Shown piece by piece: positions 7,413 to 56,034 of a DNA stretch of 64,000 nt. A program made the translations under genes and the position numbers. This DNA is from an uncultured Alphaproteobacteria bacterium (GTDB lineage Bacteria; Bacteroidota; Ignavibacteria; OLB7). Numbering within the stretch: the stretch's first letter is position 1; each line of letters starts with the position of its first letter. The notes beneath the pieces are model-generated. The model was given only the letters and a program-made list of their open reading frames with translations, had not been told where the DNA came from and did not search any database. The stretch is from contig CAYVWR010000006.1 in assembly GCA_964455525.1 (NCBI GenBank), forward strand, positions 261,388 through 325,387, in the 5' to 3' direction.

Positions 7413-10400
7413 ATGATTAGATCGAGCATTGTGAAGACCCTCTTTAGCCTTCCGTTCATATCTCTCGTTCTGACGGCGACTCTCTCGGCGCAACCACGGG
7501 TGGTGGAAGATCGCCCGCTGGCACGTGCCGTGCGTTCGGCGGCTACATTGGTCGACCAGGGCCATTACAGCAGAGCTGCCAACGAGCTAGAAGCCGCACT
7601 GGACTCAGCAGCCGCAGGAGAGCATATGGCCGATGCTCTCTATTACCTCGCACGTGCCACGTTCATGACACAACGGTACCGACCGGCACTCCTGAACAGT
7701 CGGCGGTTTCTGAACGGATATCCCGATGACCCGCGCACCGATGAGCTGCTCTACCTCTATGGCACAGCCGCCTATCAGGAAGGGCTGACCGACGATGCAT
7801 ACAACGCATTCTACGATGTGGCCGCAGCCGACTCGCCCACACGTGGAGAAGCGCTCTACTGGCTTGCGCGTATCAGTGCCGACCGTGGAAAGCTCGACAG
7901 CGCCGAGGCATATGCAACCCTGTCGCTTCGATCACAACCGCACGAGTTCACCGACGACGCCCTCTATCTTACGGCCTGGCTTCAGGAGGGTAGGGAGGAG
8001 ATAGATTCGGCCGCGGCTCTGTATGACCGGCTTATCAAGGATTATCCGCAGAGCGAGCTATCCCTTGACGCCAGCCTTCGCCTTGGCATCATCGATGCAC
8101 GGCGGGGAAACTACGAGTCGGCCATCAGGCTGCTCAACAGCGTTACCCCACGAAGCGATCGCCAGCGGGAAGAACAGCTCTTTTACCTTGGCGAGATGAG
8201 CGCTGCGCTCGACCGCCACGATGAAGCCCTACGCTACAACAACGAATTTCTCCGAACATTTCCGATAAGCGTCCGCACGCGCCAGGTACGTTATGGCGTA
8301 GCATGGGCGCTTCTGAATCTGAAACGTTACGACGAAGCCATCGCCACCCTTCGCCAGCTTGAGGGGGGCATCGATTCGATAGCGGCGGCAGCATCGTATC
8401 AGATCGGCGCCGTACAGGTAACCAGGGGCGATACCGCCGGAGCGATGCGCACCTTCCAGGATCTGATCTACCGGCTGCCGTACGAATCGTTCAGCGACAA
8501 CGCCTACTATCAGATAGGGCGCATCCATTACCGCCGCGCCAACTACGATTCGGCACGGCATTACCTCCTGATCGCCGCCCGGCAGTTCCCGGAGAGCGAA
8601 ATCCGCCCCGATGCATTCTATCTGCTTGGAGAGTCATATGTCGCGCTCGACGATCCCGCCAACAGCGTCTATGCATTCTCTCGCGCACAGAAGACCGGGG
8701 CAACCGGCGATCTGTACCGGCAGGCACTGTATCGAGAGGGGGTGATGCTCTACCGTGTTGGCCGGTTCCAGAGCGCCATCAGCCGTTTCCGGGAATATGT
8801 ATCGGAACACCCCAATGGCCCGGAGATAGCCGACGCCACCTTCTGGCTTGGCGAGGCACTGTATCAGGACAGGAAATACGACGAGGCAGAGAGCTACTAT
8901 AACGCGTTTCTGGAGCGCTTCAAGGCATCCCCCTGGCGCGAACAGGCAGTCTACGGGCTTGCCTGGTCACGCTTCCAGCAGAAGGATTTCAAGGGTGCAG
9001 CGCTCGCATTCGAGGATTTCATCAAGAACAATCCCACAAGCGATCTGGCTACCGAAGCAACGATCCGCCTGGCAGACTCCTATCGATTCCTGGGCCAGTA
9101 CGACAAGGCGATCGCCACCTATGAATCGGTCGGAGGCAAATCCGGCAAAGGGGTACGCGATGAGGAAGCCCGGTTCCGTCTGGCCGATGTATTCCTTCAG
9201 ATGGGCGACGTCAATCGCGCCGTGGAAACCTTTCGGATGCTGATCCGCGATTATCCGAACTCCGTCCGCCGCGATGCCTATGCCTTCAATATCGGCTCGA
9301 TCTACCATGAGAGGGAGATGGACTCGCTGGCGATCGCAGAGCTGAGCAGGTTCCCGCAAAGCTACCCGGAAAGCCAGCTTCTTCCGCAGGTTGCCTTTAC
9401 CATCGGCGATGCCTACTACAATCTCGAAGAATATGATAGCGCCCTGGTCTACTACCGCAGTGTGCTCGATGAGTATCCCAATAGCATGGTGGTGCCGGAA
9501 GCGCTCGACGCAGTTCGCTTTACCCTGGAGGCGCTCGGACGGGGACGGGAGGCAGTGGCTGTGATCGATAGCTTCCAGGCCAGGAATCCGAACCGTATCG
9601 CCGCCGATTCGCTTGGATTCCGCAAAGCCTCCATTGTGCTGGAACAGGGGGAGTTCGCCGAAGCCATCGGCCTGTACAAGAAGCTGATGGAGGATTACCC
9701 GCAGAGCCTTATGGTGCCAACAACCATCCTGCAGATCGGCAGAAGCTATGAATACCTCGGACGTCAGGATTCGGCGCTCTTCTATTATACGCAGGTTGTC
9801 AAACGGTTCCCGGAAAGTTCACCGGCACAGGACGCCCTGATCGAAAGCGCCGGAATACGCCTTCGTGCCCGCTCCTGGCAGCAGGCCGCGCTTGCCTACG
9901 AGCAGTTCGTGGAAGGTTACCCGGAGTCGGAGCGGTTGAGCGAAGCGCGCTATGGCATCGCCACAGCCAGCCTGCAACTGGGAGATACCGCCAGAGCGCT
10001 TGCACAGTTGCAGAGAGTGCTCGACTCCGCCAATGCCCAGGATGAGGACCTCTTCCTCGATCGCAGCCGTATTACAACCGCACGGCTGATAGCACCGCGT
10101 GGGGAGATCGACCGTGCGCTTGAACTTCTGGCCGCAGTTGTTGCCCGTCGCCTGGATGATGTCGCAGCCGAAGCCCTTCTGCTGCGCAGTCAGTTGCTTG
10201 TTGGCACCAACGATCTCTCCGGTGCGCTTGCCGAACTTCGCCAGTTGACGGCCGACTTTGCATCCTACCCGGAATATGCCGAGCCGGGAACGTTGCTTCT
10301 CGGCACGGTCTACGAGCGGCTGACCAATTACGGCGCCGCACGCGACATCTATAACCAGCTTATCGCACAGAGCGAAGATCCTGCCATTCGTGCCGAAGCC

Positions 10401-10430
10401 GAAGCCAGATTGAAGAAGCTGAAGCGATGA
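7413..10430 (+). CDS. Large tetratricopeptide-repeat (TPR) protein with a signal peptide, about 1005 aa
   Basis: Start moved to the internal ATG (ORF-track residue 127), where the signal peptide MIRSSIVKTLFSLPFISLVLTATLSAQP begins. The translation upstream of it looks non-coding. Many TPR-like A/L/Y-rich helical repeats run throughout. Confidence 0.8.
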   Translation: MIRSSIVKTLFSLPFISLVLTATLSAQPRVVEDRPLARAVRSAATLVDQGHYSRAANELEAALDSAAAGEHMADALYYLARATFMTQRYRPALLNSRRFLNGYPDDPRTDELLYLYGTAAYQEGLTDDAYNAFYDVAAADSPTRGEALYWLARISADRGKLDSAEAYATLSLRSQPHEFTDDALYLTAWLQEGREEIDSAAALYDRLIKDYPQSELSLDASLRLGIIDARRGNYESAIRLLNSVTPRSDRQREEQLFYLGEMSAALDRHDEALRYNNEFLRTFPISVRTRQVRYGVAWALLNLKRYDEAIATLRQLEGGIDSIAAAASYQIGAVQVTRGDTAGAMRTFQDLIYRLPYESFSDNAYYQIGRIHYRRANYDSARHYLLIAARQFPESEIRPDAFYLLGESYVALDDPANSVYAFSRAQKTGATGDLYRQALYREGVMLYRVGRFQSAISRFREYVSEHPNGPEIADATFWLGEALYQDRKYDEAESYYNAFLERFKASPWREQAVYGLAWSRFQQKDFKGAALAFEDFIKNNPTSDLATEATIRLADSYRFLGQYDKAIATYESVGGKSGKGVRDEEARFRLADVFLQMGDVNRAVETFRMLIRDYPNSVRRDAYAFNIGSIYHEREMDSLAIAELSRFPQSYPESQLLPQVAFTIGDAYYNLEEYDSALVYYRSVLDEYPNSMVVPEALDAVRFTLEALGRGREAVAVIDSFQARNPNRIAADSLGFRKASIVLEQGEFAEAIGLYKKLMEDYPQSLMVPTTILQIGRSYEYLGRQDSALFYYTQVVKRFPESSPAQDALIESAGIRLRARSWQQAALAYEQFVEGYPESERLSEARYGIATASLQLGDTARALAQLQRVLDSANAQDEDLFLDRSRITTARLIAPRGEIDRALELLAAVVARRLDDVAAEALLLRSQLLVGTNDLSGALAELRQLTADFASYPEYAEPGTLLLGTVYERLTNYGAARDIYNQLIAQSEDPAIRAEAEARLKKLKR

Positions 10431-10630
10431 TCCGGCAGTACCAGACATGCAGCACAAGCGGAGAGCCTTGCCGAGCAGAGGGACCGGCCTGGGATCGGCC
10501 CCGGCAACGCAATGCCGGAACGGCCAGCGCCTGCCCCAGGCTCTCCCCGGATGCACATCGACACGCATCCACGTTAAACGGCGGACCTGCTCCCCAATCG
10601 AACATCCAACATCGGCAATCGAACATCGGT

Positions 10631-21768: not shown

Positions 21769-22407
21769 TCAGCCCAGCCGCTTGCGTGCTCTCTGCTGGA
21801 TCTTCCGCTCTGCGTCGTTACGGGCCTTCGCCTGCACACAGCGCTGAAGATCGGCGCAGGCGGCGGCATCGTTCTCCAGTTCCTTGTAGGCAAGCGACCG
21901 AAGGTAATAGACTTCCACCGGGTTCTCGGCACCGTAGGTGAGCGCCTTCGAGAGATTATCCACGGCGGTCTCGAACGAGGCATCCGGCAGCCCGCCATAA
22001 AACGCCTTGACGGCACTCTTCTGCATCCAGGAGAGATTGGCAATGTAATAATGCCAGGCTCCGAGCATCATATAGGCCGCCCCGTTTTTATTGTCGAGCG
22101 TAATGGCTCGTTCGGCGCTCTCCTTTACTACTTTCGATAACTGTATCCGCTCCTTGGTCGGAGCTACCATTGCAAGCCGTCCGGCAGCGTTTGCAAGCCA
22201 CAGATGCTCATGGGAGCTGTTCGGATTCTGAGCCACCGAACGCTGGGCCATCGTGTAGGCACGGCGGAACACCGGCTCCTGCTCATCATCGCTGGTGAGC
22301 TTTTCTCCGCTTATCACAAGATTCCTGACATCCTTCCAATCGGCACAAGCATGCGAAGCGCCCACAGCAGCAACGGCAAGAACACACCATACAACGGCAA
22401 TCTTCAT
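21769..22407 (-). CDS. Hypothetical secreted protein
   Basis: Signal peptide MKIAVVWCVLAVAAVGASHA, helical TPR-like body, no recognisable motif. Confidence 0.45.
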   Translation of the reverse strand: MKIAVVWCVLAVAAVGASHACADWKDVRNLVISGEKLTSDDEQEPVFRRAYTMAQRSVAQNPNSSHEHLWLANAAGRLAMVAPTKERIQLSKVVKESAERAITLDNKNGAAYMMLGAWHYYIANLSWMQKSAVKAFYGGLPDASFETAVDNLSKALTYGAENPVEVYYLRSLAYKELENDAAACADLQRCVQAKARNDAERKIQQRARKRLG

Positions 22408-22861
22408 AACACATCCCTATTCAGGTGAACAATCATCATTCTCATCAACAAGAACGAACCGTGCCTGGCAATAGTACCAGGCACATCGCTTACACTCTGA
22501 AATAATACAGGCCAACGCTCAGAGATGCAATGGATGAGAGCAAATTCAGTGCAAGAAATTCCAGGATGCGGCGAGTAGAGCTGTAGCAGAAACCATTGTG
22601 GGGGAGGATAGTATGCCTGGCAGCACCCCTGAAGACCGATTCGGCATGAACGGAGAGCGGAGCAACAGGGCCAGTTGCTGGCCTGACAGGCTCGTTCCCG
22701 AACGCACATGAACGGAAACTGGGCCAGCGACCGCCCACACCAGGCGCAGAGAATCCTTTGAAGACATCCGTATCACCTGGCGATCAGTTGCAGAGGGGCA
22801 TCCGTGCATAACATCTTATGATGCCCCAGACGCCAGCATACAGTGATGGAAGAGTCCCCTC

Positions 22862-23596
22862 TTGGTCTGGACAAGTGGTTTTTCAGCTATGTGGCTACTA
22901 GCGAACGCGAAGAACGGGATCAGTTCGTACGAGCTGCACCGGGCAATCGGGGTCACCCAGAAGAGCGCATGGTTCATGCTACATCGAATCCGGTTGTCAA
23001 TGGAAGCCGGGACGATTGAGAAGAAGGCTATAGGTGTCTGTGAGGCTGATGAGACCTACATCGGTGGCCGAATCAGCAACATGCATAAGTCGAAGAAGGA
23101 GAAGATGCCAAAGGGCCGGGGGACGGTCGGTAAGGCTATCGTCATGGGGGGATACTGGAGCGAGGAGATGAGGGGAAATTGAGCAGCGTTCGGGCGAAGG
23201 TCATTGAGAACATCCAGCGTGAAACGCTCCACAAGGAGGTTAAGGACAATGTAGATCCCGGTAGTAGCATCTTTACGGATTCTTTGGCATCTTACCAAGG
23301 TCTGGAGGAGGAATACGTCCATAAGTTCGTGGATCATGCAGTTTCGTACGTGGAGGGGATGGTTCATACGAATGGGCTAGAGAACTTCTGGAGTTTGCTG
23401 AAGCGCACGGTACGGGGGACGTATACGCATGTTGACCCGGAGCATCTGTTTCGATAACCGGAAGGATGATGATCAAGGTAGGTTCCTGAATGTAGTGGGA
23501 TCATCAGAGGGGAAACGGATAACCTATAAGGAATTGAAAAAGAAGCCAGAGAAGGACGAAGAGAAGAAGAAGCCGAGGGAAAAGAAGAAGACGTAA
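22862..23596 (+). pseudogene. Decayed IS1595-family (ISXO2-like) transposase. The N-terminus (zinc-finger region) is missing and there are at least two frameshifts (near 23180 and 23455).
   Basis: Frame 2 reads WLLANAKNGISSYELHRAIGVTQKSAWFMLHRIR...EADETYIGG. Frame 1 reads ...HAVSYVEGMVHTNGLENFWSLLKRTV.GTYTHVDPEHLFR. A third frame reads RFL..KRITYKEL. These are the conserved IS1595 HTH/DDE-region blocks split across frames. Confidence 0.7.
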
Positions 23597-24081
23597 TGTT
23601 CCCTGCAATCGCGGGGATGATCCAATACACGGAAGGACCTCATACCCCCACAGGTTTCCAGTAATTCGCCTGTGGGTCACCTTTTCACCAGATATGGAGA
23701 AAGGCGTGTACGAGGTAACAGCCGTGGTCATCGCGATGGCTTATCTCGTCAGAGAGATCAGACTTCTGATCTCTGTCTGGCGTGGATAAGTGAACGGATG
23801 GCACAAAGTATGGTCCCCACTCCGGTGGGGGCCATGACTATATACTGATTATGGGTACATCGAAGAAAGAAAAGGAATCAGAGAGTGAGATGCCAGAGTC
23901 ATGGAAGAAATTCCTTGACATGGCTCGTACGGTTGTGAATGTTCCGAAGGAAAAGATCGAGAAGTTAGAAGAACAGAAGCAGAAGGAGCGTCCTCGTAGC
24001 CAGCAAGATCAAGAAAGGATAGCCGAATAGTTAATTACATCACCCCGGTTGATAAGCGAGTCATCACATTATAGCCGTTGT

Positions 24082-24534
24082 ATGATGAAATTCGATCAGA
24101 TTCACAATGATACCGATTGCAAATGCATCAACAATACTTGTCAGGAGAACACAAGTGATATATTCTGTCGAGCCTTAAAAGGTAAGGACCTTACTGCTAG
24201 TGACTTCATGTCATATTGGGAAGAAGGACGACGTCTCCCTGCACATATCAAGGCAAACTGTGAAGACACATGTGAACGAAAGGGTATATCCATCAACTTA
24301 CTCAATTCAGATAATGAAGAGAATGTCAAAGGAAAATTCAGTAGTATAGTTACGCGAAATATCAAGCCACAGAGAAAGATATTTACTCACTACTGTAAGT
24401 TCAAGTTTGCGGCAGACTGCGGAAAGCTCAAGCATACACCCGGACGTGGCGACCAGTATCATTACACATTTTACAAATGTGATGGGTTCAACATTAAACA
24501 GTTAGAGCATGTCAGCATACTTCCATTGAGCTAA
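24082..24534 (+). CDS. Hypothetical Cys-rich small protein, about 150 aa. The ORF track starts at TTG 24049. First gene of the island operon.
   Basis: Eleven Cys in the listed 161-aa ORF, including CKCINNTC, CEDTC, YCKFKFAADC and YKC, with no recognised family. The stop is followed 1 nt later by the start of the next gene. Confidence 0.45.
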   Translation: MMKFDQIHNDTDCKCINNTCQENTSDIFCRALKGKDLTASDFMSYWEEGRRLPAHIKANCEDTCERKGISINLLNSDNEENVKGKFSSIVTRNIKPQRKIFTHYCKFKFAADCGKLKHTPGRGDQYHYTFYKCDGFNIKQLEHVSILPLS

Positions 24535-24535
24535 A

Positions 24536-25807
24536 ATGTTTGAGATCGAACCATATCGAGAAGTACCAACCGACTTACCTGTTATTAAATCGGAGTACCA
24601 CGTTTTGCATTTCGATGATGAACCTATACTCTATTCTGGGAAGAATAGATATGGGGATATCGTACTTGGCTCCTCCGTTGATGAGGACTATGAAGGACGG
24701 ATTGAGCGTCATTATTGTGTGCCAGTAGACCTCGCTACATACTCGTCTTTCATCAATGGTAATATCAGTTACTATGATATCCTCTGTCAATCAAAGTCAA
24801 TATTCGTCGTTGACAGTGATTTCGATGGGAAGTCATTTCGTACGTACCTGCTACCTCTTGCTGATATCCCTAGCGATTATCTGCCAATGCCAGATTCTTT
24901 CTGTCCTCCCCAACCAGTATCTGAGTCTCTAGCACTATCATTATATGCAAGTCTTAAAGGAAAGCTAGCTGATCAGCACAAAGCCGTGCCATCAGAGCTA
25001 AGCCGGATACAACAGGCACTAGCAGACGTATTAGAAACCGCATTGAATAGCTTGCGGGAACTGACTCAACCCAATTTATATATTGCAGCATACTCTCCGT
25101 CAAGTTTCCGGATTCATTATGAAGTCCAGATGCCAAAACAACTTGACTTCGGCACTCAGGGTTACATCCGCTTCTATAATAAGCTTCTTCGCTTTTGCTT
25201 TAACAATCTGCCCACTGAGATGGCGAAGATTGTCGAGTTGACTCCTGAAATATCCTACAGGTTTGAAGAAATAGTGAATGAGTACAAAGACCTACATAGT
25301 ACAGTATGGGTTGAAAGTGGCAACAAGGAAGCATACTTTCGTGCGCAATTGATTGAGAATGTTGTTGAGATTGCGAACGAATTAAAAGATGCGTCTGATG
25401 CGATAGGTCAGCACTTCACGAATATCTCCATATTTGATGGGGAATCTGATGAAGCATCTAATGTCGTGGGAGTTATTGATGATAATTTTAGAGACGGTAT
25501 TGTTGAGGCTATTGAGATAGCTGGTAGTAAATATTCTAAATTTGAAGCCGATGCAACACCGCAGACGTACGAAATCCAAATTTATTCTTTTAATACTCAT
25601 TCAAGGAAGGGTAGCGCATACGTAATCGTCTCCAATGTTCATGGTGATCGAGAAGTTATTACGACTAGGATTACAGTTCTTGGTGATGAGATCTTAGAAG
25701 AAACGAAATACACAGAAAGCTTACATCACAAGAAAACCATTCAAATCCGGGCGACCGCACATCGAGTAAGGGGTAAGATTACTCGAATGGACATACTGTT
25801 TGATTAA
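24536..25807 (+). CDS. Hypothetical 423-aa protein, second gene of the island operon
   Basis: Long AT-rich ORF with no Walker, HKD or other recognisable catalytic motif. It is probably translationally coupled to the upstream ORF (TAAaATG). Confidence 0.5.
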   Translation: MFEIEPYREVPTDLPVIKSEYHVLHFDDEPILYSGKNRYGDIVLGSSVDEDYEGRIERHYCVPVDLATYSSFINGNISYYDILCQSKSIFVVDSDFDGKSFRTYLLPLADIPSDYLPMPDSFCPPQPVSESLALSLYASLKGKLADQHKAVPSELSRIQQALADVLETALNSLRELTQPNLYIAAYSPSSFRIHYEVQMPKQLDFGTQGYIRFYNKLLRFCFNNLPTEMAKIVELTPEISYRFEEIVNEYKDLHSTVWVESGNKEAYFRAQLIENVVEIANELKDASDAIGQHFTNISIFDGESDEASNVVGVIDDNFRDGIVEAIEIAGSKYSKFEADATPQTYEIQIYSFNTHSRKGSAYVIVSNVHGDREVITTRITVLGDEILEETKYTESLHHKKTIQIRATAHRVRGKITRMDILFD

Positions 25808-25986
25808 GTATCAACCCGTTTCATCACCTCAGCCAGCAGTTCATCAGGTTGCATTTTGAGCTTTCCTGCGATCGAAATGATCCCTCGCAGACACACCTGC
25901 CGTTCTCCTCTCTCTAGCCTTGATATGTAGGAATGATCCATTGTGTCATCATCCTCCAGATCAGCTTGAGTCAAACCAAGCGCCAT
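25804..25986 (-). CDS. XRE-family helix-turn-helix (HTH) DNA-binding protein (short, possibly N-terminally truncated)
   Basis: LGLTQADL.....SYISRLERGER.....L..IA..L is the XRE/Cro-type HTH pattern. It is convergent on and overlaps the 423-aa gene by 4 nt, and is divergent from the next ORF. Confidence 0.55.
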   Translation of the reverse strand: MALGLTQADLEDDDTMDHSYISRLERGERQVCLRGIISIAGKLKMQPDELLAEVMKRVDT

Positions 25987-26022
25987 CCTTCTCTCTCGTA
26001 AGACTATAGCACAGGTAAAAGG

Positions 26023-26484
26023 GTGAAGCTGAACCCTGATGGAACATGGGCCGCACTGGATAACGATAGTACCAGCGGCTTCAATCCCAAGGGGGCGAAA
26101 TTCCTGACCGCTAGAACCAGTAAGCCCACTCAGCTAAAGGGTATGGCCGAGATCATGCCTGATGGTTTGTTTGGCTCTTCGTTCCAAAGCCAAGCTGAAC
26201 AATACTATGCGTTCCGAATCCAGTGTGAGGGATTCCCGGATGGTCGTAGCGTTATGGGCTGTATCCAGCGGGATACACCTGAAGGGGAACGACTCTTTGA
26301 GACATTAAGTGATGGTAAGAAACACAAGGTTGTTTTGGAAATGCGATTTCGGACCAAGGCAGAACAGAAACCGTCTCTCGTACGGATGTACGAGCAGGAC
26401 CCACCCCCTGATATGTTTTATGACAAGAGCCATGTACTAATCACCAAAATAGTTGCGATCGACACATGGTCAGTAGCCAATTAA
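26023..26484 (+). CDS. Hypothetical protein (GTG start in the ORF track), divergent from the XRE gene
   Basis: ORF in the AT-rich island with no recognisable domain. Confidence 0.4.
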   Translation: MKLNPDGTWAALDNDSTSGFNPKGAKFLTARTSKPTQLKGMAEIMPDGLFGSSFQSQAEQYYAFRIQCEGFPDGRSVMGCIQRDTPEGERLFETLSDGKKHKVVLEMRFRTKAEQKPSLVRMYEQDPPPDMFYDKSHVLITKIVAIDTWSVAN

Positions 26485-26610
26485 CGGGAGCTATAATAGC
26501 GAGTGAGGTGGTGACACAATGGAAGACATTATGAGTTTTTCAGTTGGTGATATCCGAGACGATGAGAACTGGATCGAATCATCGGTACGCTGTACCTATT
26601 CCTAAAACAA

Positions 26611-26808
26611 TTGGAGTATGGTGTTAAACTCGGCATCGAGCAGTTAAAGGATAACGCATTTACTGTTCTTGTTGGTCATTTGTGTGGTGTTACGTCTGGG
26701 AAATTCCACGGCCACGAAGTCGCCATCTGTTATCTGAATGAATGGAATTATTCGTCGGCAGTCGGGGCTATGAAAGAACAGCACAAGAAGGAGCTGGGTG
26801 AACTATAG
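26611..26808 (+). CDS. Hypothetical small protein (TTG start), uncertain
   Basis: Only ORF-track support. Confidence 0.2.
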   Translation: MEYGVKLGIEQLKDNAFTVLVGHLCGVTSGKFHGHEVAICYLNEWNYSSAVGAMKEQHKKELGEL

Positions 26809-26892
26809 GAAAAGGAGAAATATGAGAAGACCGCCTTTCAGATGCCGGGCAAGGCTCGGCTTACTGTGACACTACGGGAACAGTAGAATCAA

Positions 26893-26925
26893 ATAGGGCC
26901 TGATCCACCATAGATCAGGCCCTAT
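26893..26925. terminator. Perfect 13-bp hairpin (ATAGGGCCTGATC-caccata-GATCAGGCCCTAT) at the right edge of the island
   Basis: Read directly from the sequence. There is no strong U-run, so it could be a terminator or an island-end structure. Confidence 0.4.
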
Positions 26926-27221
26926 CATATTAACCATAATCCTTCAGGCTAGTCAAGAGCTTGGTGTCTCAAGTATGTTAGTGCCTTTTTTATACCTGTG
27001 GTATTTTTTGGCTTACGAACCCATGCACTGTCAGCTATGATGCTGGATACTCTCAGGGCAAGCAAAACACTATAACATTGTACGATCGGTTGTACCCCTT
27101 GGAGCAACGGGAGCGACAGCAGAGGAGGAGTGCAATAATGGTGGCTGGACAGATATCATGATGGCATGCATATCATGGCCATATGCATGCATATCCCCTC
27201 TACACTGATACTCCCACAACC

Positions 27222-27257
27222 AGCAAAAGGGGCGGCCCGTAACGGACCACCCCTTTC
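27222..27257 (-). terminator. Candidate rho-independent terminator of the dcw operon (minus strand: GAAAGGGG...CCCCTTTT then GCTG)
   Basis: Hairpin AAAGGGG/CCCCTTT with a T4 run on the minus strand about 40 nt after the ftsZ stop. Confidence 0.45.
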
Positions 27258-27293
27258 TATTCGTTCAAGCGTATCTACGTGCCATAGAGCCTC

Positions 27294-28607
27294 CTAGTCC
27301 ATGATGCGGCGCAGGAATGCCGGCTTATCGGCAGCCTGTTTCTGCTGCCGCAGTTCCTGGCGCTCATCGGCCTGTGGCTCCTCATCTGGACGTGCCTGCG
27401 GCTCCTCCTGACGGCGGGTAACATCATAGCCACCACGGTGGATGCCTGCGCCGCGCCGCATATATGCAGGCTCGTTATACTTCTCCAGATCCTCAAGCCC
27501 CACCGGCACATGATCGGCAACGGTATCGCGCGACTGGTTTGCGTACGGACGCGCCGCCTGCTGCTGCATGGGAATGCTCTGCGGCTGCGGTGCGGCTGCC
27601 GGAGCCTGTGCTGCGGCACGCTGTGGCGGAGCCTGGCGTACCTCCTTCGACTTGTTGAACCCTGTTGCGATGACCGTCACCATCATGGAATCGGCAAGGG
27701 TATCATCCAGCACAACGCCGAAGATGATATTTGCCTCGGCACCGACCGACTCATGGACGATCTTTACCGCTTCATCCACTTCCATCATGGTCAGATCGCT
27801 CGATGCCGCGATGTTGATAAGCACGCCTTCGGAGCCTGTAATGGAGATTCCCTCCAGCAGCGGCGAGCTGATCGCATTCTGTGCAGCCTGGGTGGCACGG
27901 CTCTCGCCAGCGGCGATTCCGGTTCCCATAAGCGCATCGCCCATGTTCTGCATCACCGTACGGACGTCGGCAAAATCGACGTTGACAAGACCGTGGCCGG
28001 TAATGATCTCGGCGATGCCACGGGTGGCATTATAGAGAACATCATCAACCTTATGAAACGCTTCCCTGAAGCCGGTCTTTTTATCGATGATCGAAAGCAG
28101 CTTCTGGTTTGGCACAACGATCAGCGTATCAACGTGCTCCTTCAGCTCCTTGATACCCAGATCGGCCTTGTCCTTTCGGGGCTTTCCCTCCCAATCGAAC
28201 GGACGCGTGACGATGCCGACAACGAGAGCGCCGAGTGAGCGTGCGATTTCCGCCACAACCGGAGCGCCCCCAGTGCCGGTACCACCACCCATGCCTGCGG
28301 TAACAAACACCATGTCGGTATTCGACAGAATCTGCGCCAATTCCTCACGATCTTCAACCACTGCATCGTGGCCGATCGATGGATTTGCACCAGCGCCGAG
28401 ACCACGCGTCAGTTCCTTCCCTACCTGGACCCGAAGCGGCGACTGATTTTTAGCAAGAGCCTGGAGGTCGGTATTAACCACGAGAAATTCGCAGCCTGAC
28501 AGGCCACGCTCAATCATGCTATTGACCGCGTTTCCTCCGCCGCCCCCGACTCCTACGATTTTGATTTTTGCTCCGTGATGCTCCACGGAACGATCGAGCT
28601 CGATCAT
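27294..28607 (-). CDS. ftsZ: Cell division protein FtsZ
   Basis: GVGGGGGNAVNSM and GGGTGTG tubulin signature, and a C-terminal linker plus conserved tail. Confidence 0.97.
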   Translation of the reverse strand: MIELDRSVEHHGAKIKIVGVGGGGGNAVNSMIERGLSGCEFLVVNTDLQALAKNQSPLRVQVGKELTRGLGAGANPSIGHDAVVEDREELAQILSNTDMVFVTAGMGGGTGTGGAPVVAEIARSLGALVVGIVTRPFDWEGKPRKDKADLGIKELKEHVDTLIVVPNQKLLSIIDKKTGFREAFHKVDDVLYNATRGIAEIITGHGLVNVDFADVRTVMQNMGDALMGTGIAAGESRATQAAQNAISSPLLEGISITGSEGVLINIAASSDLTMMEVDEAVKIVHESVGAEANIIFGVVLDDTLADSMMVTVIATGFNKSKEVRQAPPQRAAAQAPAAAPQPQSIPMQQQAARPYANQSRDTVADHVPVGLEDLEKYNEPAYMRRGAGIHRGGYDVTRRQEEPQARPDEEPQADERQELRQQKQAADKPAFLRRIMD

Positions 28608-54554: not shown

Positions 54555-55308
54555 CGCCTCTCTTCCTCATCTTTTCAGATTATTATCATCGAGTCGTCAT
54601 GATTGGGAACCATCAGGAGCCTCTATCCGATGTATGGCCACCACAGATGCAGTCCCAGACATTATACACGTCCTACGATCCTATACAGGATGGCCTGAGC
54701 CGGGAGGAGCCTACTCGGCATTATTCAGCCTCCTTCGAGCCAGACCTTCATCCCTTTGAACCATTCCCGCCAGCATTCATCTGTTTCTCTCAAACCTGAA
54801 TACGGTATACAGGGTAGCAGAAACACCAACCATGAACTCCGTTGCGTTTCGCGGCCGTGCCACAAGCTTCTCATCGCGCATGAAAAGGGTCGGCAGCACG
54901 CTTTATAACATGCGATCGAGCATTGGATATAGGCTGCCAAATTAGCCGATGGCAGCGCGAGGGTTGTCACCCGAACGGGTGAGTGCTGGGGGTGATTTTA
55001 CGAGAGGAAACAAGAGGGTACCGGCAGAATACGATGCGGAACGTTCGCATACCTGTGCCAAACGTCCATGAAATGTGCACCGAAAAAAGCTCCGCGAACT
55101 GCCATGACATGTTTTGTGGTTCATCCGCATGATGATAACTTGCCCCTTCCAAAAGCAACTATCACCTATCGACTATTGGAATCTACAGGTTGATTCTGCC
55201 CAAGGCCTGGCAGCCACAGGAGCACGCTATGGGCAAACAGCCGTTAACCGATCAGAATTACGTATCAATAATAGCGTCCATTCCATTCTTCCATCATCCA
55301 GTGCTTCC

Positions 55309-55854
55309 ATGAAAAACGTTATCTCCGGCCTGTTCGTTGTGATAGCCGTATTGTTCGCTGCATGTTCTCCATCAACCGATCCAGGAACCACCCCCGACCC
55401 CATCACCAATCCAAAGCCCGACCCTAATCCAGATCCGAAACCAGATCCAGATCCGAAGCCAGATCCAAAACCAGATGGCCCATCAATTAGAAAGCCCTAT
55501 GATGCAGTCCGAAATGGCGTTCAGATCACCGGCATTTATTTCCATCAGGATTCCAATTTTATCGTTCACAATCTCCGGGATGAATGGATCATTCTGGAAT
55601 CGGACATGCCGATCCCGACAAAGGGATGGACGCTTGATGCATCCGATAACCAGCGTTTCCAGCTCCCCGATACGCTCCATAAAAAACTCTATATCTATAC
55701 GCTCAACGGCCCCGGTTATGAAAATGACACCATTATGACATTGAAGCGAAAGGCATCAGCATGGATCTGGAACAACACCGAACCTGATACCGGAAAGGTA
55801 TTCAATGCGCTCGGGGAGCTGATCGATTCCATTACATACAAGGCGAAGCGCTAA
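55309..55854 (+). CDS. Lipoprotein with a (PDPKPD)n linker and a lamin-tail-like (LTD) beta domain
   Basis: Start at the internal ATG (residue 66). Signal peptide plus lipobox FAAC. Repeat NPKPDPNPDPKPDPDPKPDPKPDGP. The C-terminus EWIILESDMPIPTKGWTLDASDNQRFQLP resembles LTD domains. Confidence 0.55.
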   Translation: MKNVISGLFVVIAVLFAACSPSTDPGTTPDPITNPKPDPNPDPKPDPDPKPDPKPDGPSIRKPYDAVRNGVQITGIYFHQDSNFIVHNLRDEWIILESDMPIPTKGWTLDASDNQRFQLPDTLHKKLYIYTLNGPGYENDTIMTLKRKASAWIWNNTEPDTGKVFNALGELIDSITYKAKR

Positions 55855-56034
55855 CGTTTCCCGGCGCTGCTATGGCGTATGCAGGCGGCTAAGGTGTACG
55901 ATTCATGGCCGGGCCGTCTTCACAAGGCTCCCGCACCAGAAAACCACGGGGAACTGCGCCACAAATGTCGTATCTGTTGTATGTTGCTTTTCAGATGCAG
56001 CAGGACACGTGCACGTTATTACACCTGACGCAGA

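Follow-up and report, generated by a model that had tools for sequence, protein, structure and literature searches.

The question raised by this locus is where the AT-rich DNA lying immediately downstream of ftsZ in an uncultured Kapaibacteria bacterium (Candidatus Kapaibacteriota) came from, and whether it still carries working genes. We analysed it within a window of 64 kb, by which we mean the whole stretch of DNA studied. The original prediction had placed it in a dcw context, and MurB, FtsQ-like, FtsA and FtsZ were indeed confirmed there. The features to be considered are, in order along the window:

21769..22407, minus strand: TPR/RMD1-3-like gene, 212 aa, flank (Pfam RMD1-3, E = 1.4e-13)
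22843..23596, plus strand: dead IS1595-family transposase, 5'-truncated, with at least three frameshifts and host-like GC3
23597..24084, plus strand: spacer of intermediate GC (~45-52%) between the IS remnant and gene A
24085..24534, plus strand: gene A, 149 aa, putative antitoxin/neutraliser
24536..25807, plus strand: gene B, 423 aa, putative toxin/effector, starting 1 nt past the stop of A
25804..25986, minus strand: XRE-type HTH ORF, 60 aa (Pfam HTH_3, E = 2.7e-5, profile positions 7-55 only)
26023..26484, plus strand: orphan ORF, 153 aa, GC 49%, among the gene calls of the source assembly
26611..26808, plus strand: orphan ORF, 65 aa, no family match (Pfam, PADLOC, PHROGs, NCBIfam)
26893..26925: perfect 13-bp inverted repeat with a 7-nt loop (folding and repeat search)
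27225..27257, minus strand: ftsZ intrinsic terminator (A-run, 14-bp stem, U-run; dG -27.8, z -4.7)
27294..28607, minus strand: ftsZ, last gene of the dcw cluster, flank (Pfam Tubulin and FtsZ_C in the source record)

Sliding-window GC and tetranucleotide analyses confirmed that the AT-rich island is real. The GC content of positions 23600-27270 was 44.5%, against a mean of 57.2% for the 64-kb window, and that of the A-B pair (24085-25807) was 40.9%. The lowest-GC 3.4-kb stretch of the 64 kb started at 23701 (43.9%) and lay about 4 sd under the mean (57.3%, sd 3.3). Tetranucleotide distances computed in 3-kb windows reached z = 4.5-4.9 across 23001-27000 and, barring windows overlapping this interval, never exceeded 0.6 elsewhere, leaving 23600-27270 as the sole outlier of the 64 kb in both GC and tetranucleotide composition (z ~4-5). 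The host GC of about 62% that had been claimed was too high, the measured values being 55-61%. At third codon positions, GC was 0.38-0.43 in A and B against 0.64-0.68 in ftsZ, ftsA and the flanking genes; it was 0.46-0.52 in the part holding the HTH gene and the orphan ORFs, thus 0.38-0.52 for the whole cargo.

The order ftsZ-TPR gene was kept in five relatives (L003, L005, L006, L007 and L011), in which the gap between the two genes, located by tblastn, varied from 0.6 to 6.2 kb. In three sister Kapaibacteria genomes among them (L006, L007 and L011), just 0.6-1.3 kb of host-GC DNA separated ftsZ from the TPR gene, which sits 4.9 kb from ftsZ in the window. The TPR/RMD1-3-like gene is a conserved neighbour downstream of ftsZ in relatives, and in L003 a HEAT gene was also seen past it. 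FtsZ was 69-88% identical in the Kapaibacteria genomes, and a short Logan contig (L002) was identical to the window. In the comparison with the closest relative, the segment lacking homology began at 22559 and ended at the ftsZ stop (27294; ~4.7 kb), DNA homology with L003 reaching position 22558. The island genes were found in none of the relatives. A search of the JGI metagenomes for an island-less strain, using a degenerate pattern of the ftsZ 3' end, gave no match.

Both the break in composition and the absence from the same locus in relatives support 22559-~27225 as a horizontally acquired islet, as the original prediction had proposed, with the ftsZ terminator (27225-27257) marking the right-hand limit of the acquired DNA. 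The extent given earlier (23600-26930) was too narrow, the variable segment running from 22559 to ~27225 and including the IS remnant. We detected no tRNA, integrase-like ORF or flanking direct repeats in the island, and scanning all 64 kb for Rfam families and tRNAs returned nothing. The interval 22559-27225 is not bracketed by any pair of repeats, inverted or direct, and the search for a target-site duplication that had been called for found none around the segment; the long-range repeat pairs present were only chance-level matches of 12-17 nt or terminators. The analysis also reveals the interval that follows ftsZ as a place where conflict genes have landed repeatedly in Kapaibacteria.

The ORFs of the island had been described as unassignable. 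Two of them do match a family: the 60-aa ORF matched HTH_3, and the 423-aa ORF, gene B, matched the PADLOC model PD-T4-10_B. The HTH ORF is convergent with B, overlaps its stop by 4 nt, and also matched the PADLOC "control protein" models (E = 3e-7). Its helix 1 is encoded upstream in frame (...FTCAIVLRERR-M...), where there is no ATG, GTG or TTG, and the gene looks decayed. The first ~40 codons of the 153-aa ORF are antisense to this open frame upstream of the HTH ORF, therefore its true start may be later. Searches of this ORF for family matches (Pfam, PADLOC, PHROGs and NCBIfam) and for relatives (IMG/VR, the JGI metagenomes, phage records and plasmid records) both came back empty. In the spacer, a 59-aa Lys/Glu-rich ORF (23851-24030) was likewise devoid of relatives and had no match in the same four family libraries. 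The promoter of A-B presumably lies within this spacer (23597-24084), which also contains a small palindrome (23753-23774). The promoter and terminator scan gave no more matches than in shuffled sequence; it overlooked the ftsZ terminator, which was then confirmed by RNA folding. The hairpin expected on the right (26893-26905/26913-26925) was confirmed as well, with dG values of -23.1 kcal/mol on the plus strand and -26.6 on the minus strand (z -8.1 and -4.9; no shuffle as stable); it probably serves the orphan-ORF segment as a terminator or end structure.

The A-B pair has a wide distribution, occurring in Bacteroidota, Chlorobiota and Nitrospirota as well as on viral contigs. A small A-sized gene lay directly upstream of a co-oriented B-sized gene in 13 of 13 contexts, some of the partners being inferred from size and position since homology of A or B was confirmed by tblastn for L016-L020 only. 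In the 10 loci for which the spacing was read, the two genes overlapped by up to 14 nt or stood at most 2 nt apart (stop at 24534 and start at 24536 in the window). The surrounding genes were unrelated from locus to locus, with frequent toxin-antitoxin neighbours (MazE/PIN, HicAB, DUF4160/DUF2442, Fic), and in most genomes the pair was a solitary two-gene insertion amid housekeeping genes. Two loci were on IMG/VR viral contigs, adjoining a terminase or capsid-cement gene, and an XRE-type HTH gene flanked the pair in the window, L020 and L026. The closest relative of the pair was L024. We read A-B as a self-contained mobile cassette.

Its likeness is to PD-T4-10 of E. coli ECOR65 (Vassallo et al., 2022; PMC9519451). 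According to that report, B of PD-T4-10 alone is toxic, A neutralises it and could not be deleted, and the pair protects against T-even phages via abortive infection; DUF6575 is listed there as a new defence domain, with no named system attached in the text available (PMC9519451). No function was assigned to either protein (RCO36089.1 and RCO36088.1, from QOYX01000006) in the literature that we searched. We judged the likeness via the PADLOC profiles. Window B matched PD-T4-10_B with E = 1.2e-7, residues 30-128 aligning to positions 29-125 of 353, and all 18 B relatives compared matched this model, through the N-terminal domain only (E from 1e-7 to 1e-9, best 1.4e-9). PD-T4-10_A was weakly matched by 4 of 37 A relatives (best E = 3.1e-4). 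In one of the A relatives (P0098), residues 60-142 were collinear with positions 58-139 of the 148 of the model (E = 0.018), a length close to the 141-149 aa of most A members. Window A matched no PADLOC model at E<=1, so that callers of the PADLOC type would probably miss the system. From these sequence similarities, A-B is best read as a divergent PD-T4-10-type toxin-antitoxin abortive-infection module.

For gene A, the ATG at 24085 was preferred over a TTG at 24049 by comparison with homologues. The protein is predicted to adopt an ADP-ribosyltransferase (ART)-like fold, a fold usual in toxins rather than antitoxins. The family comprises 80 clusters; window A is full length and keeps every family-invariant residue (R29, D40, C59, S69, H126, K131, D133 and F135; 80 homologues), C12, C14 and C63 being near-invariant. 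The four cysteines C12, C14, C59 and C63 (CxC...CxxxC) could form a zinc site. We searched A for the ART triad (R/H on strand 1, S/Y on strand 2, E/Q/D on strand 5), judging positions from sequence. R29 (strand 27-31) and S69 (strand 68-72) were 100% invariant in the family; at or after strand 126-131 the invariant residues were H126, K131 and D133, with no Glu. There was no sequence-level match of A to ART families and no match in phage records, and the A and B alignments used as profiles against PDB sequences found nothing.

Gene B belongs to a family of about 480 representatives at 50% identity, and the window copy is full length with all family-invariant residues retained (149 homologues). 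Three domains were predicted: an N-terminal, beta-rich, DUF6575/PD-T4-10_B-like domain (~1-128), a central, helical, ferredoxin/palm-like domain (~133-335), and a C-terminal, OB-like beta-barrel, weakly DUF7947-like (~340-423). DUF6575 maps onto the first of them at a sub-threshold score. Ser190 and Ser395 are invariant, and B has no invariants that look catalytic. By tblastn, B had no match in plasmid records, and its sole match in phage records was through the N-terminal domain, to a 125-aa ORF of a huge 636-kb phage (LR756504.1) that is a stand-alone copy of this domain. A search for further phage copies returned the same phage only. The alignment of the domain is highly variable, too much so for a pattern scan.

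The explanation that we favour, and regard as probable, is that of an acquired low-GC mosaic in the variable gap downstream of ftsZ, whose working cargo is a divergent PD-T4-10 relative, A-B. The low-GC segment would have been gained horizontally in the naturally variable interval between ftsZ and the next conserved gene, and would combine three pieces: an older, decayed IS1595 copy, the intact A-B operon, whose donor had a lower GC, and a set of orphan ORFs together with a decayed HTH gene. The mechanism that we infer is derived by homology to PD-T4-10: A and B would be co-produced by translational coupling and B would be held inactive by A; phage infection would upset this neutralisation, and freed B would arrest or kill the infected cell before the phage cycle completes. 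The conserved N-terminal domain of B may be a regulatory or partner-binding part. Since predicted A is ART-like, with enzyme-like invariants and four cysteines, and B has no catalytic-looking invariants, the neutralisation may, with less certainty, be enzymatic (A modifying B, as in type VII systems) rather than simple binding.

Other origins can be proposed for the segment. The left-hand transposase, predicted as IS1595-like and frameshifted, was recovered as such, DDE_Tnp_IS1595 matching two adjacent frames (E = 2.6e-23 and 3.1e-5), and passenger genes are found in some members of the IS1595 family. As first suggested, the transposase could once have formed, with the ORFs that follow it, a single transposable unit inserted after ftsZ: the remnant immediately precedes the cargo, in the same orientation, and L024 also has a transposase next to A-B. 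We find this very unlikely. The GC3 of the remnant is host-like (0.61-0.69), unlike that of the cargo (0.38-0.52), so that the two have different histories; an IS1595 adjoins none of the 12 other A-B loci; the transposase at L024 is IS1-like, with no tblastn match to the window remnant (best E = 1.9); and neither terminal inverted repeats nor a target-site duplication bracket 22559-27225. The three-frame reading showed that the remnant lacks its N-terminal zinc-ribbon part (everything upstream of "...SPLGLDKWF"), and the 64-kb window has no second copy. A more serious possibility, although we doubt it, is that A-B, the HTH gene and the orphans were left by the deletion of a prophage or integrative element in which A-B was an accessory defence "moron" cassette. 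The two viral contigs, the XRE-type genes flanking the pair at three loci, and the decay of the HTH gene amid orphan neighbours all point that way. The island has, however, no integrase, tRNA, att-like direct repeats or phage structural gene, the pair is mostly solitary among housekeeping genes, and its GC3 (0.38-0.43) departs from that of the HTH/orphan part (0.46-0.52). This scenario concerns the origin of the segment and is compatible with our favoured explanation.

Other readings concern the roles of the genes. Their homology to PD-T4-10 being distant, A and B could have other roles than there, although nothing indicates that they do. A could be an ART-type effector or toxin, with B serving as regulator, sensor or immunity partner; the E. 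coli results summarised above (B alone toxic, neutralised by an A that could not be deleted; PMC9519451) make this unlikely, as does the position of A, the small upstream gene being usually the antitoxin. That all the ORFs of the island are non-functional leftovers seems extremely improbable: the IS is dead, the HTH gene is without a start codon, and the searches turned up no relatives for the ORFs of 153, 65 and 59 aa, but A and B are uninterrupted, with family-normal lengths and coupling, and keep all invariant residues (80 and 149 homologues, respectively). Finally, the mechanism could be pushed further, with A as an active, zinc-binding, ART-fold antitoxin that silences B by modifying it covalently (e.g., at Ser190 or Ser395), infection stopping the modification and stand-alone phage copies of the N-terminal domain, such as the 125-aa ORF of LR756504.1, acting as decoys. 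We consider this version rather unlikely. If true, it would provide PD-T4-10-type systems with a mechanism, and the enzyme-antitoxin (type VII) systems would gain a class that acts by ADP-ribosylation; we neither know of nor found in the literature any description of an ADP-ribosyltransferase-type antitoxin.

Under the mosaic explanation, the island is an ordinary, common kind of acquired defence islet, and what is unexpected is the predicted ART-like fold of A. The locus opens a much broader, unannotated branch of PD-T4-10 in Bacteroidota, Chlorobiota, Kapaibacteria, Nitrospirota and viral contigs. It also offers several leads: a putative antitoxin with four cysteines that is predicted to be ART-like and looks like an enzyme, a three-domain putative toxin without catalytic signatures that has only its N-terminal domain in common with E. 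coli PD-T4-10B, and a phage-borne copy of that domain.

Among known systems, the IS1595-family insertion sequences (ISXO2-like DDE transposase) share the DDE_Tnp_IS1595 domain with the remnant, which differs from them in having no intact ORF, zinc-ribbon N-terminus/HTH, recognisable ends or target duplication, and a composition unlike that of the cargo. In the systems with ART-fold toxins (DarT-DarG, ParT-ParS, RES-Xre, MbcT-MbcA, Rhs1-CT, Tne2), the ART protein is the toxin, whereas A would be the neutraliser, by homology to PD-T4-10; unlike these toxins, including the Rhs C-terminal ARTs, A has the additional CxC...CxxxC site, and no canonical catalytic Glu was identified in it. In type VII toxin-antitoxin systems such as HepT-MntA, the antitoxin is an enzyme modifying the toxin; the likeness is by analogy only, a small enzyme-like partner being encoded upstream of the toxin, with no homology. 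PD-T4-10 itself resembles A-B in having a small A followed by a larger B, the two ORFs being coupled or overlapping, in a homologous N-terminal domain of B, and in its location in accessory DNA or prophages, neither system having an annotated function. They differ in the length of B, 423 aa here against 353 (70 longer), with only ~100 N-terminal residues aligning and no detectable counterpart of the central and C-terminal parts in the PD-T4-10_B model, and in their hosts, Enterobacteria for PD-T4-10 versus Kapaibacteria, Bacteroidota, Chlorobiota and Nitrospirota here.

Downstream of ftsZ lies foreign DNA, an islet that was clearly acquired at a variable site and is ordinary as islands go. Mean GC content was 57.2% over the 64-kb window, with all 1-kb bins outside the region between 50 and 62%; it was 44.5% at 23600-27270 and 40.9% in the two-gene core (24085-25807). 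The lowest-GC 3.4-kb window of the entire sequence started at 23701 (43.9%, about 4 standard deviations under the mean), and the tetranucleotide distance from the window average reached z = 4.5-4.9 for 3-kb windows within 23001-27000, no window elsewhere in the 64 kb exceeding 0.6. Both measures confirmed the abrupt compositional change of the original prediction. GC3 was 0.64-0.68 in ftsZ, ftsA and two flanking host genes, 0.43 in A and 0.38 in B, the two core genes. The sole other 1-kb bin falling to about 50% GC was 55001-56000 (tetranucleotide z 0.6).

Features of the locus following ftsZ (window coordinates)
21769-22407, TPR/RMD1-3-like gene
22843-23596, piece (i), dead IS1595 transposase; GC3 0.61-0.69, host-like
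24085-25807, plus strand, piece (ii), intact A (24085-24534, 149 aa) and B (24536-25807, 423 aa); GC 40-41%
25804-26925, piece (iii), XRE-type HTH ORF (opposite strand), orphan 153-aa and 65-aa ORFs, 13-bp hairpin; GC3 0.46-0.52
26893-26925, perfect 13-bp hairpin, real by repeat search and folding
27225-27257, strong intrinsic terminator 3' of ftsZ; dG -27.8 kcal/mol, z -4.7
27294-28607, minus strand, ftsZ, ending the MurB / FtsQ-like / FtsA / FtsZ cluster

The nearest FtsZ relatives among GTDB species genomes were Candidatus Kapaibacteriota / Chlorobiota MAGs (69-88% identity), and the protein was also found on Logan assemblies of SRR16797978 and SRR16797988, whose contigs were identical to the window. 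In five relatives (L003, L005, L006, L007 and L011), the gene next after ftsZ, in the same orientation, is the TPR/RMD1-3-like one, and in L003 a HEAT-repeat gene comes after that. The ftsZ-TPR gap measures 0.6 kb in L006, 0.9 kb in L007 and 1.3 kb in L011, with host-like 58-61% GC, 2.5 kb at 51% GC in L003, 6.2 kb in L005 and 4.9 kb in the window. None of the island genes was found in any of these relatives; their absence there, together with the compositional break, confirms the foreign origin that had been proposed. DNA homology to the closest relative, L003, ends at the ftsZ stop codon and restarts at window 22558, so that the non-homologous segment is 22559-27293; the right edge of the acquired DNA, set by the ftsZ terminator, is at about 27225. 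The island initially placed at 23600-26930 is real but wider (22559 to about 27225), the IS remnant included. The 13-bp hairpin, the ftsZ terminator and the dcw cluster context were all present as described (repeat search, folding and annotation). Between 26930 and 27225 the DNA has 46-50% GC and no convincing ORF, and short palindromes that overlap one another (ATGATGGCATGCATATCATGGCCATATGCATGCATATC) occupy 27140-27200, between the hairpin and the terminator.

The L003 gap (8350-10518 of Kapaibacteriota MAG JBMDXA010000155.1) contains a different low-GC (46-50%) 2.4-kb insert encoding DUF2247, DUF7683/cloacin-immunity-like and DUF6334 domain proteins, which we take to be immunity-protein-like families, and in the 6.2-kb gap of L005 an ECF sigma factor is encoded along with other genes. 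Since these two relatives carry different inserts in the same gap, accessory or conflict genes have landed there repeatedly in this lineage. The L006 and L007 gaps have in common a conserved small antisense ORF on the minus strand (MEAVSEGRQQSLELIHTEYVRLSNRCALYVQNSFDDIKLYEAIGV… and its L007 counterpart), absent from the window. Some 55 nt upstream of the TPR gene, within the stretch still homologous to L003, is a stable hairpin with a T-rich tail (window 22460-22485, minus strand, dG -22.3, z -4.5), which may be a terminator shielding that gene from upstream inserts.

The segment is a mosaic of three pieces. In the leftmost, Pfam DDE_Tnp_IS1595 gave matches in two neighbouring frames (E 2.6e-23 and 3.1e-5), and three-frame reading revealed at least three frameshifts and the loss of the N-terminal zinc-ribbon part, in agreement with the multiply frameshifted transposase expected there. 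The further proposal of a fossil IS1595 with its passenger module was not sustained: the codon composition of the IS is host-like and that of the cargo is not, no IS1595 lies beside any other A-B locus inspected, and the segment has no bracketing element ends. Searches of the segment for tRNAs, Rfam families, an integrase, inverted repeats bracketing it or a target duplication were likewise negative. That it is the remnant of a prophage or an integrative element, an idea compatible with our main explanation, appears possible and somewhat unlikely. In the rightmost piece, the HTH ORF (60 aa, 25804-25986, minus) aligns to HTH_3 from profile position 7 onward only; the same frame encodes the missing helix 1 a little further upstream (…AIVLRERR-M…), where there is no ATG, GTG or TTG, and the gene has probably lost its start. 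This frame (25804-26130) stays open for at least 48 further codons upstream, antisense to the first 40 or so codons of the orphan 153-aa ORF; probably either the HTH gene has decayed or one of these annotations is in error. The orphan ORF had no match in Pfam, PADLOC, PHROGs or NCBIfam and no relative in IMG/VR, JGI metagenomes, phage records or plasmid records.

The middle piece, A-B, belongs to a large family. A word-indexed search first gave only 18 relatives of B; an exhaustive profile search gave 482 representatives at E<=1e-3 and 222 at E<=1e-30, nearly all of 400-440 aa among the matches listed. The A family comprises 80 clusters, mostly of 141-149 aa (the start of A, ATG 24085, was chosen by homologue comparison). 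An A-sized gene lies immediately upstream of a B-sized gene in 13/13 loci inspected (the window, Nitrospirae L016, L017, L019, L020, the viral contigs L021 and L022, L024, L025, L026, the Mucilaginibacter chromosome L030, the cultured Chlorobaculum sp. 24CR L031 and Ca. Magnetomonas plexicatena L032), several partners being assigned from size and position; homology of both genes was confirmed by tblastn for L016-L020. Where spacing was read (10 loci), the two genes overlapped by as much as 14 nt or were separated by at most 2 nt. The neighbour genes differ and are unrelated between loci, toxin-antitoxin genes often adjoining the pair (MazE/PIN, HicAB, DUF4160/DUF2442, Fic), and two loci are IMG/VR viral contigs where it adjoins a large terminase or capsid-cement gene. 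The closest relative of B (L024, 52% identity) belongs to a 44%-GC pair next to a 56%-GC IS1-like transposase, itself without tblastn match to the IS remnant of the window (best E 1.9). Given the constant pairing, the unrelated neighbours, the viral contigs and the composition of L024, A-B behaves as a mobile cassette of two genes that is complete in itself. The linkage of A to B is obligate, the pair is mobile, and the cassette of the window is intact, with every family invariant kept. In L020 (GCA_023251155.1 contig) and a 49.6-kb ENA contig of P0014, a small alarmone-synthetase-like gene (RelA_SpoT domain, 340 aa; 1417-2439 in L020) precedes A-B by 47 nt in the same orientation, and an HTH_3 gene just after B, on the opposite strand, reproduces the B/HTH layout of the window.

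The B protein matched the PADLOC model PD-T4-10_B (E 1.2e-7), as did 18/18 of its relatives (best E 1.4e-9), the match being confined to the N-terminal domain (B residues 30-128 versus positions 29-125 of 353). This domain also gave a sub-threshold match to Pfam DUF6575, listed in the PD-T4-10 paper among new defence domains and, in that list, not tied to a named system (PMC9519451). The A protein of the window had no match in PADLOC, and 4/37 A family members matched PD-T4-10_A (best E 3.1e-4), the cognate partner of the model matched by B; about 0.01 such matches would be expected by chance across 37 queries. One was collinear (residues 60-142 versus 58-139 of the 148-position model), and the model length is near the 141-149 aa of most A members. 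From these matches to cognate models, A and B both appear to be distant relatives of PD-T4-10A and PD-T4-10B, and we read the pair as a diverged lineage of PD-T4-10 type, not a clean member, with a toxin-antitoxin/defence role fairly probable. With A scoring under the threshold, we expect that the pair would probably escape standard callers.

According to the description in PMC9519451, E. coli PD-T4-10 is a pair of ORFs that overlap, B being toxic and neutralised by A, which is not deletable, and protects against T-even phages via abortive infection; neither protein is given a predicted function there, and this was still so in a 2024 survey. By homology, the B of the window would be a toxin kept in check by A, freed upon phage infection and then aborting it. 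The A protein is predicted to adopt an ADP-ribosyltransferase (ART)-like fold. Eight residues are invariant over 80 sequences (R29, D40, C59, S69, H126, K131, D133, F135) and nine are at least 95% conserved (C12, C14, C63, F41, W45, E46, K66, T90, G113), a pattern that looks enzyme-like, with four cysteines (CxC…CxxxC) pointing to a possible zinc site. R29, on the first predicted core strand, and S69, on the second, occupy the R and S positions of R-S-E-type transferases; at the third position stand H, K and D, without a Glu. Over 149 sequences, the invariant residues of B are mainly Gly and Pro, together with N37, S190, D339, N353 and S395, none forming an acidic pair as needed by a cyclase or polymerase palm. 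B does not resemble a classical enzyme. Neutralisation could perhaps be catalytic, A modifying B, perhaps at its invariant serines, a refinement drawn from the predicted fold that we consider unlikely. Because the ART fold is typical of toxins, we retained the reversed assignment, with A as the toxin, as a still less probable reading, against which the E. coli genetics speak.

Judging from structure prediction, the N-domain of B would be a conserved regulatory or partner-binding module fused to a lineage-specific effector part. An uncultured huge phage (LR756504.1, 636 kb) encodes a stand-alone 125-aa ORF (L023 3001-3378), also present in two IMG/VR contigs (L028 and L029). It can be aligned from end to end to B residues 1-124 (32% identity, E 2e-20), and its last residues coincide exactly with the 'S[FY]CP' motif, itself conserved, that closes this domain. 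Neither an A-like gene nor a continuation of B in any frame was found near it; speculatively, it could be an anti-defence decoy.

The value of the islet is that it opens a large unannotated branch of PD-T4-10, with an ART-like fold predicted for the 'antitoxin' and a phage-borne copy of the toxin N-domain, all three directly testable. Compared with PD-T4-10, B is here 70 residues longer and two-thirds of it have no detectable counterpart; the cargo is probably a novel, diverged form within an already known class of anti-phage toxin-antitoxin systems.
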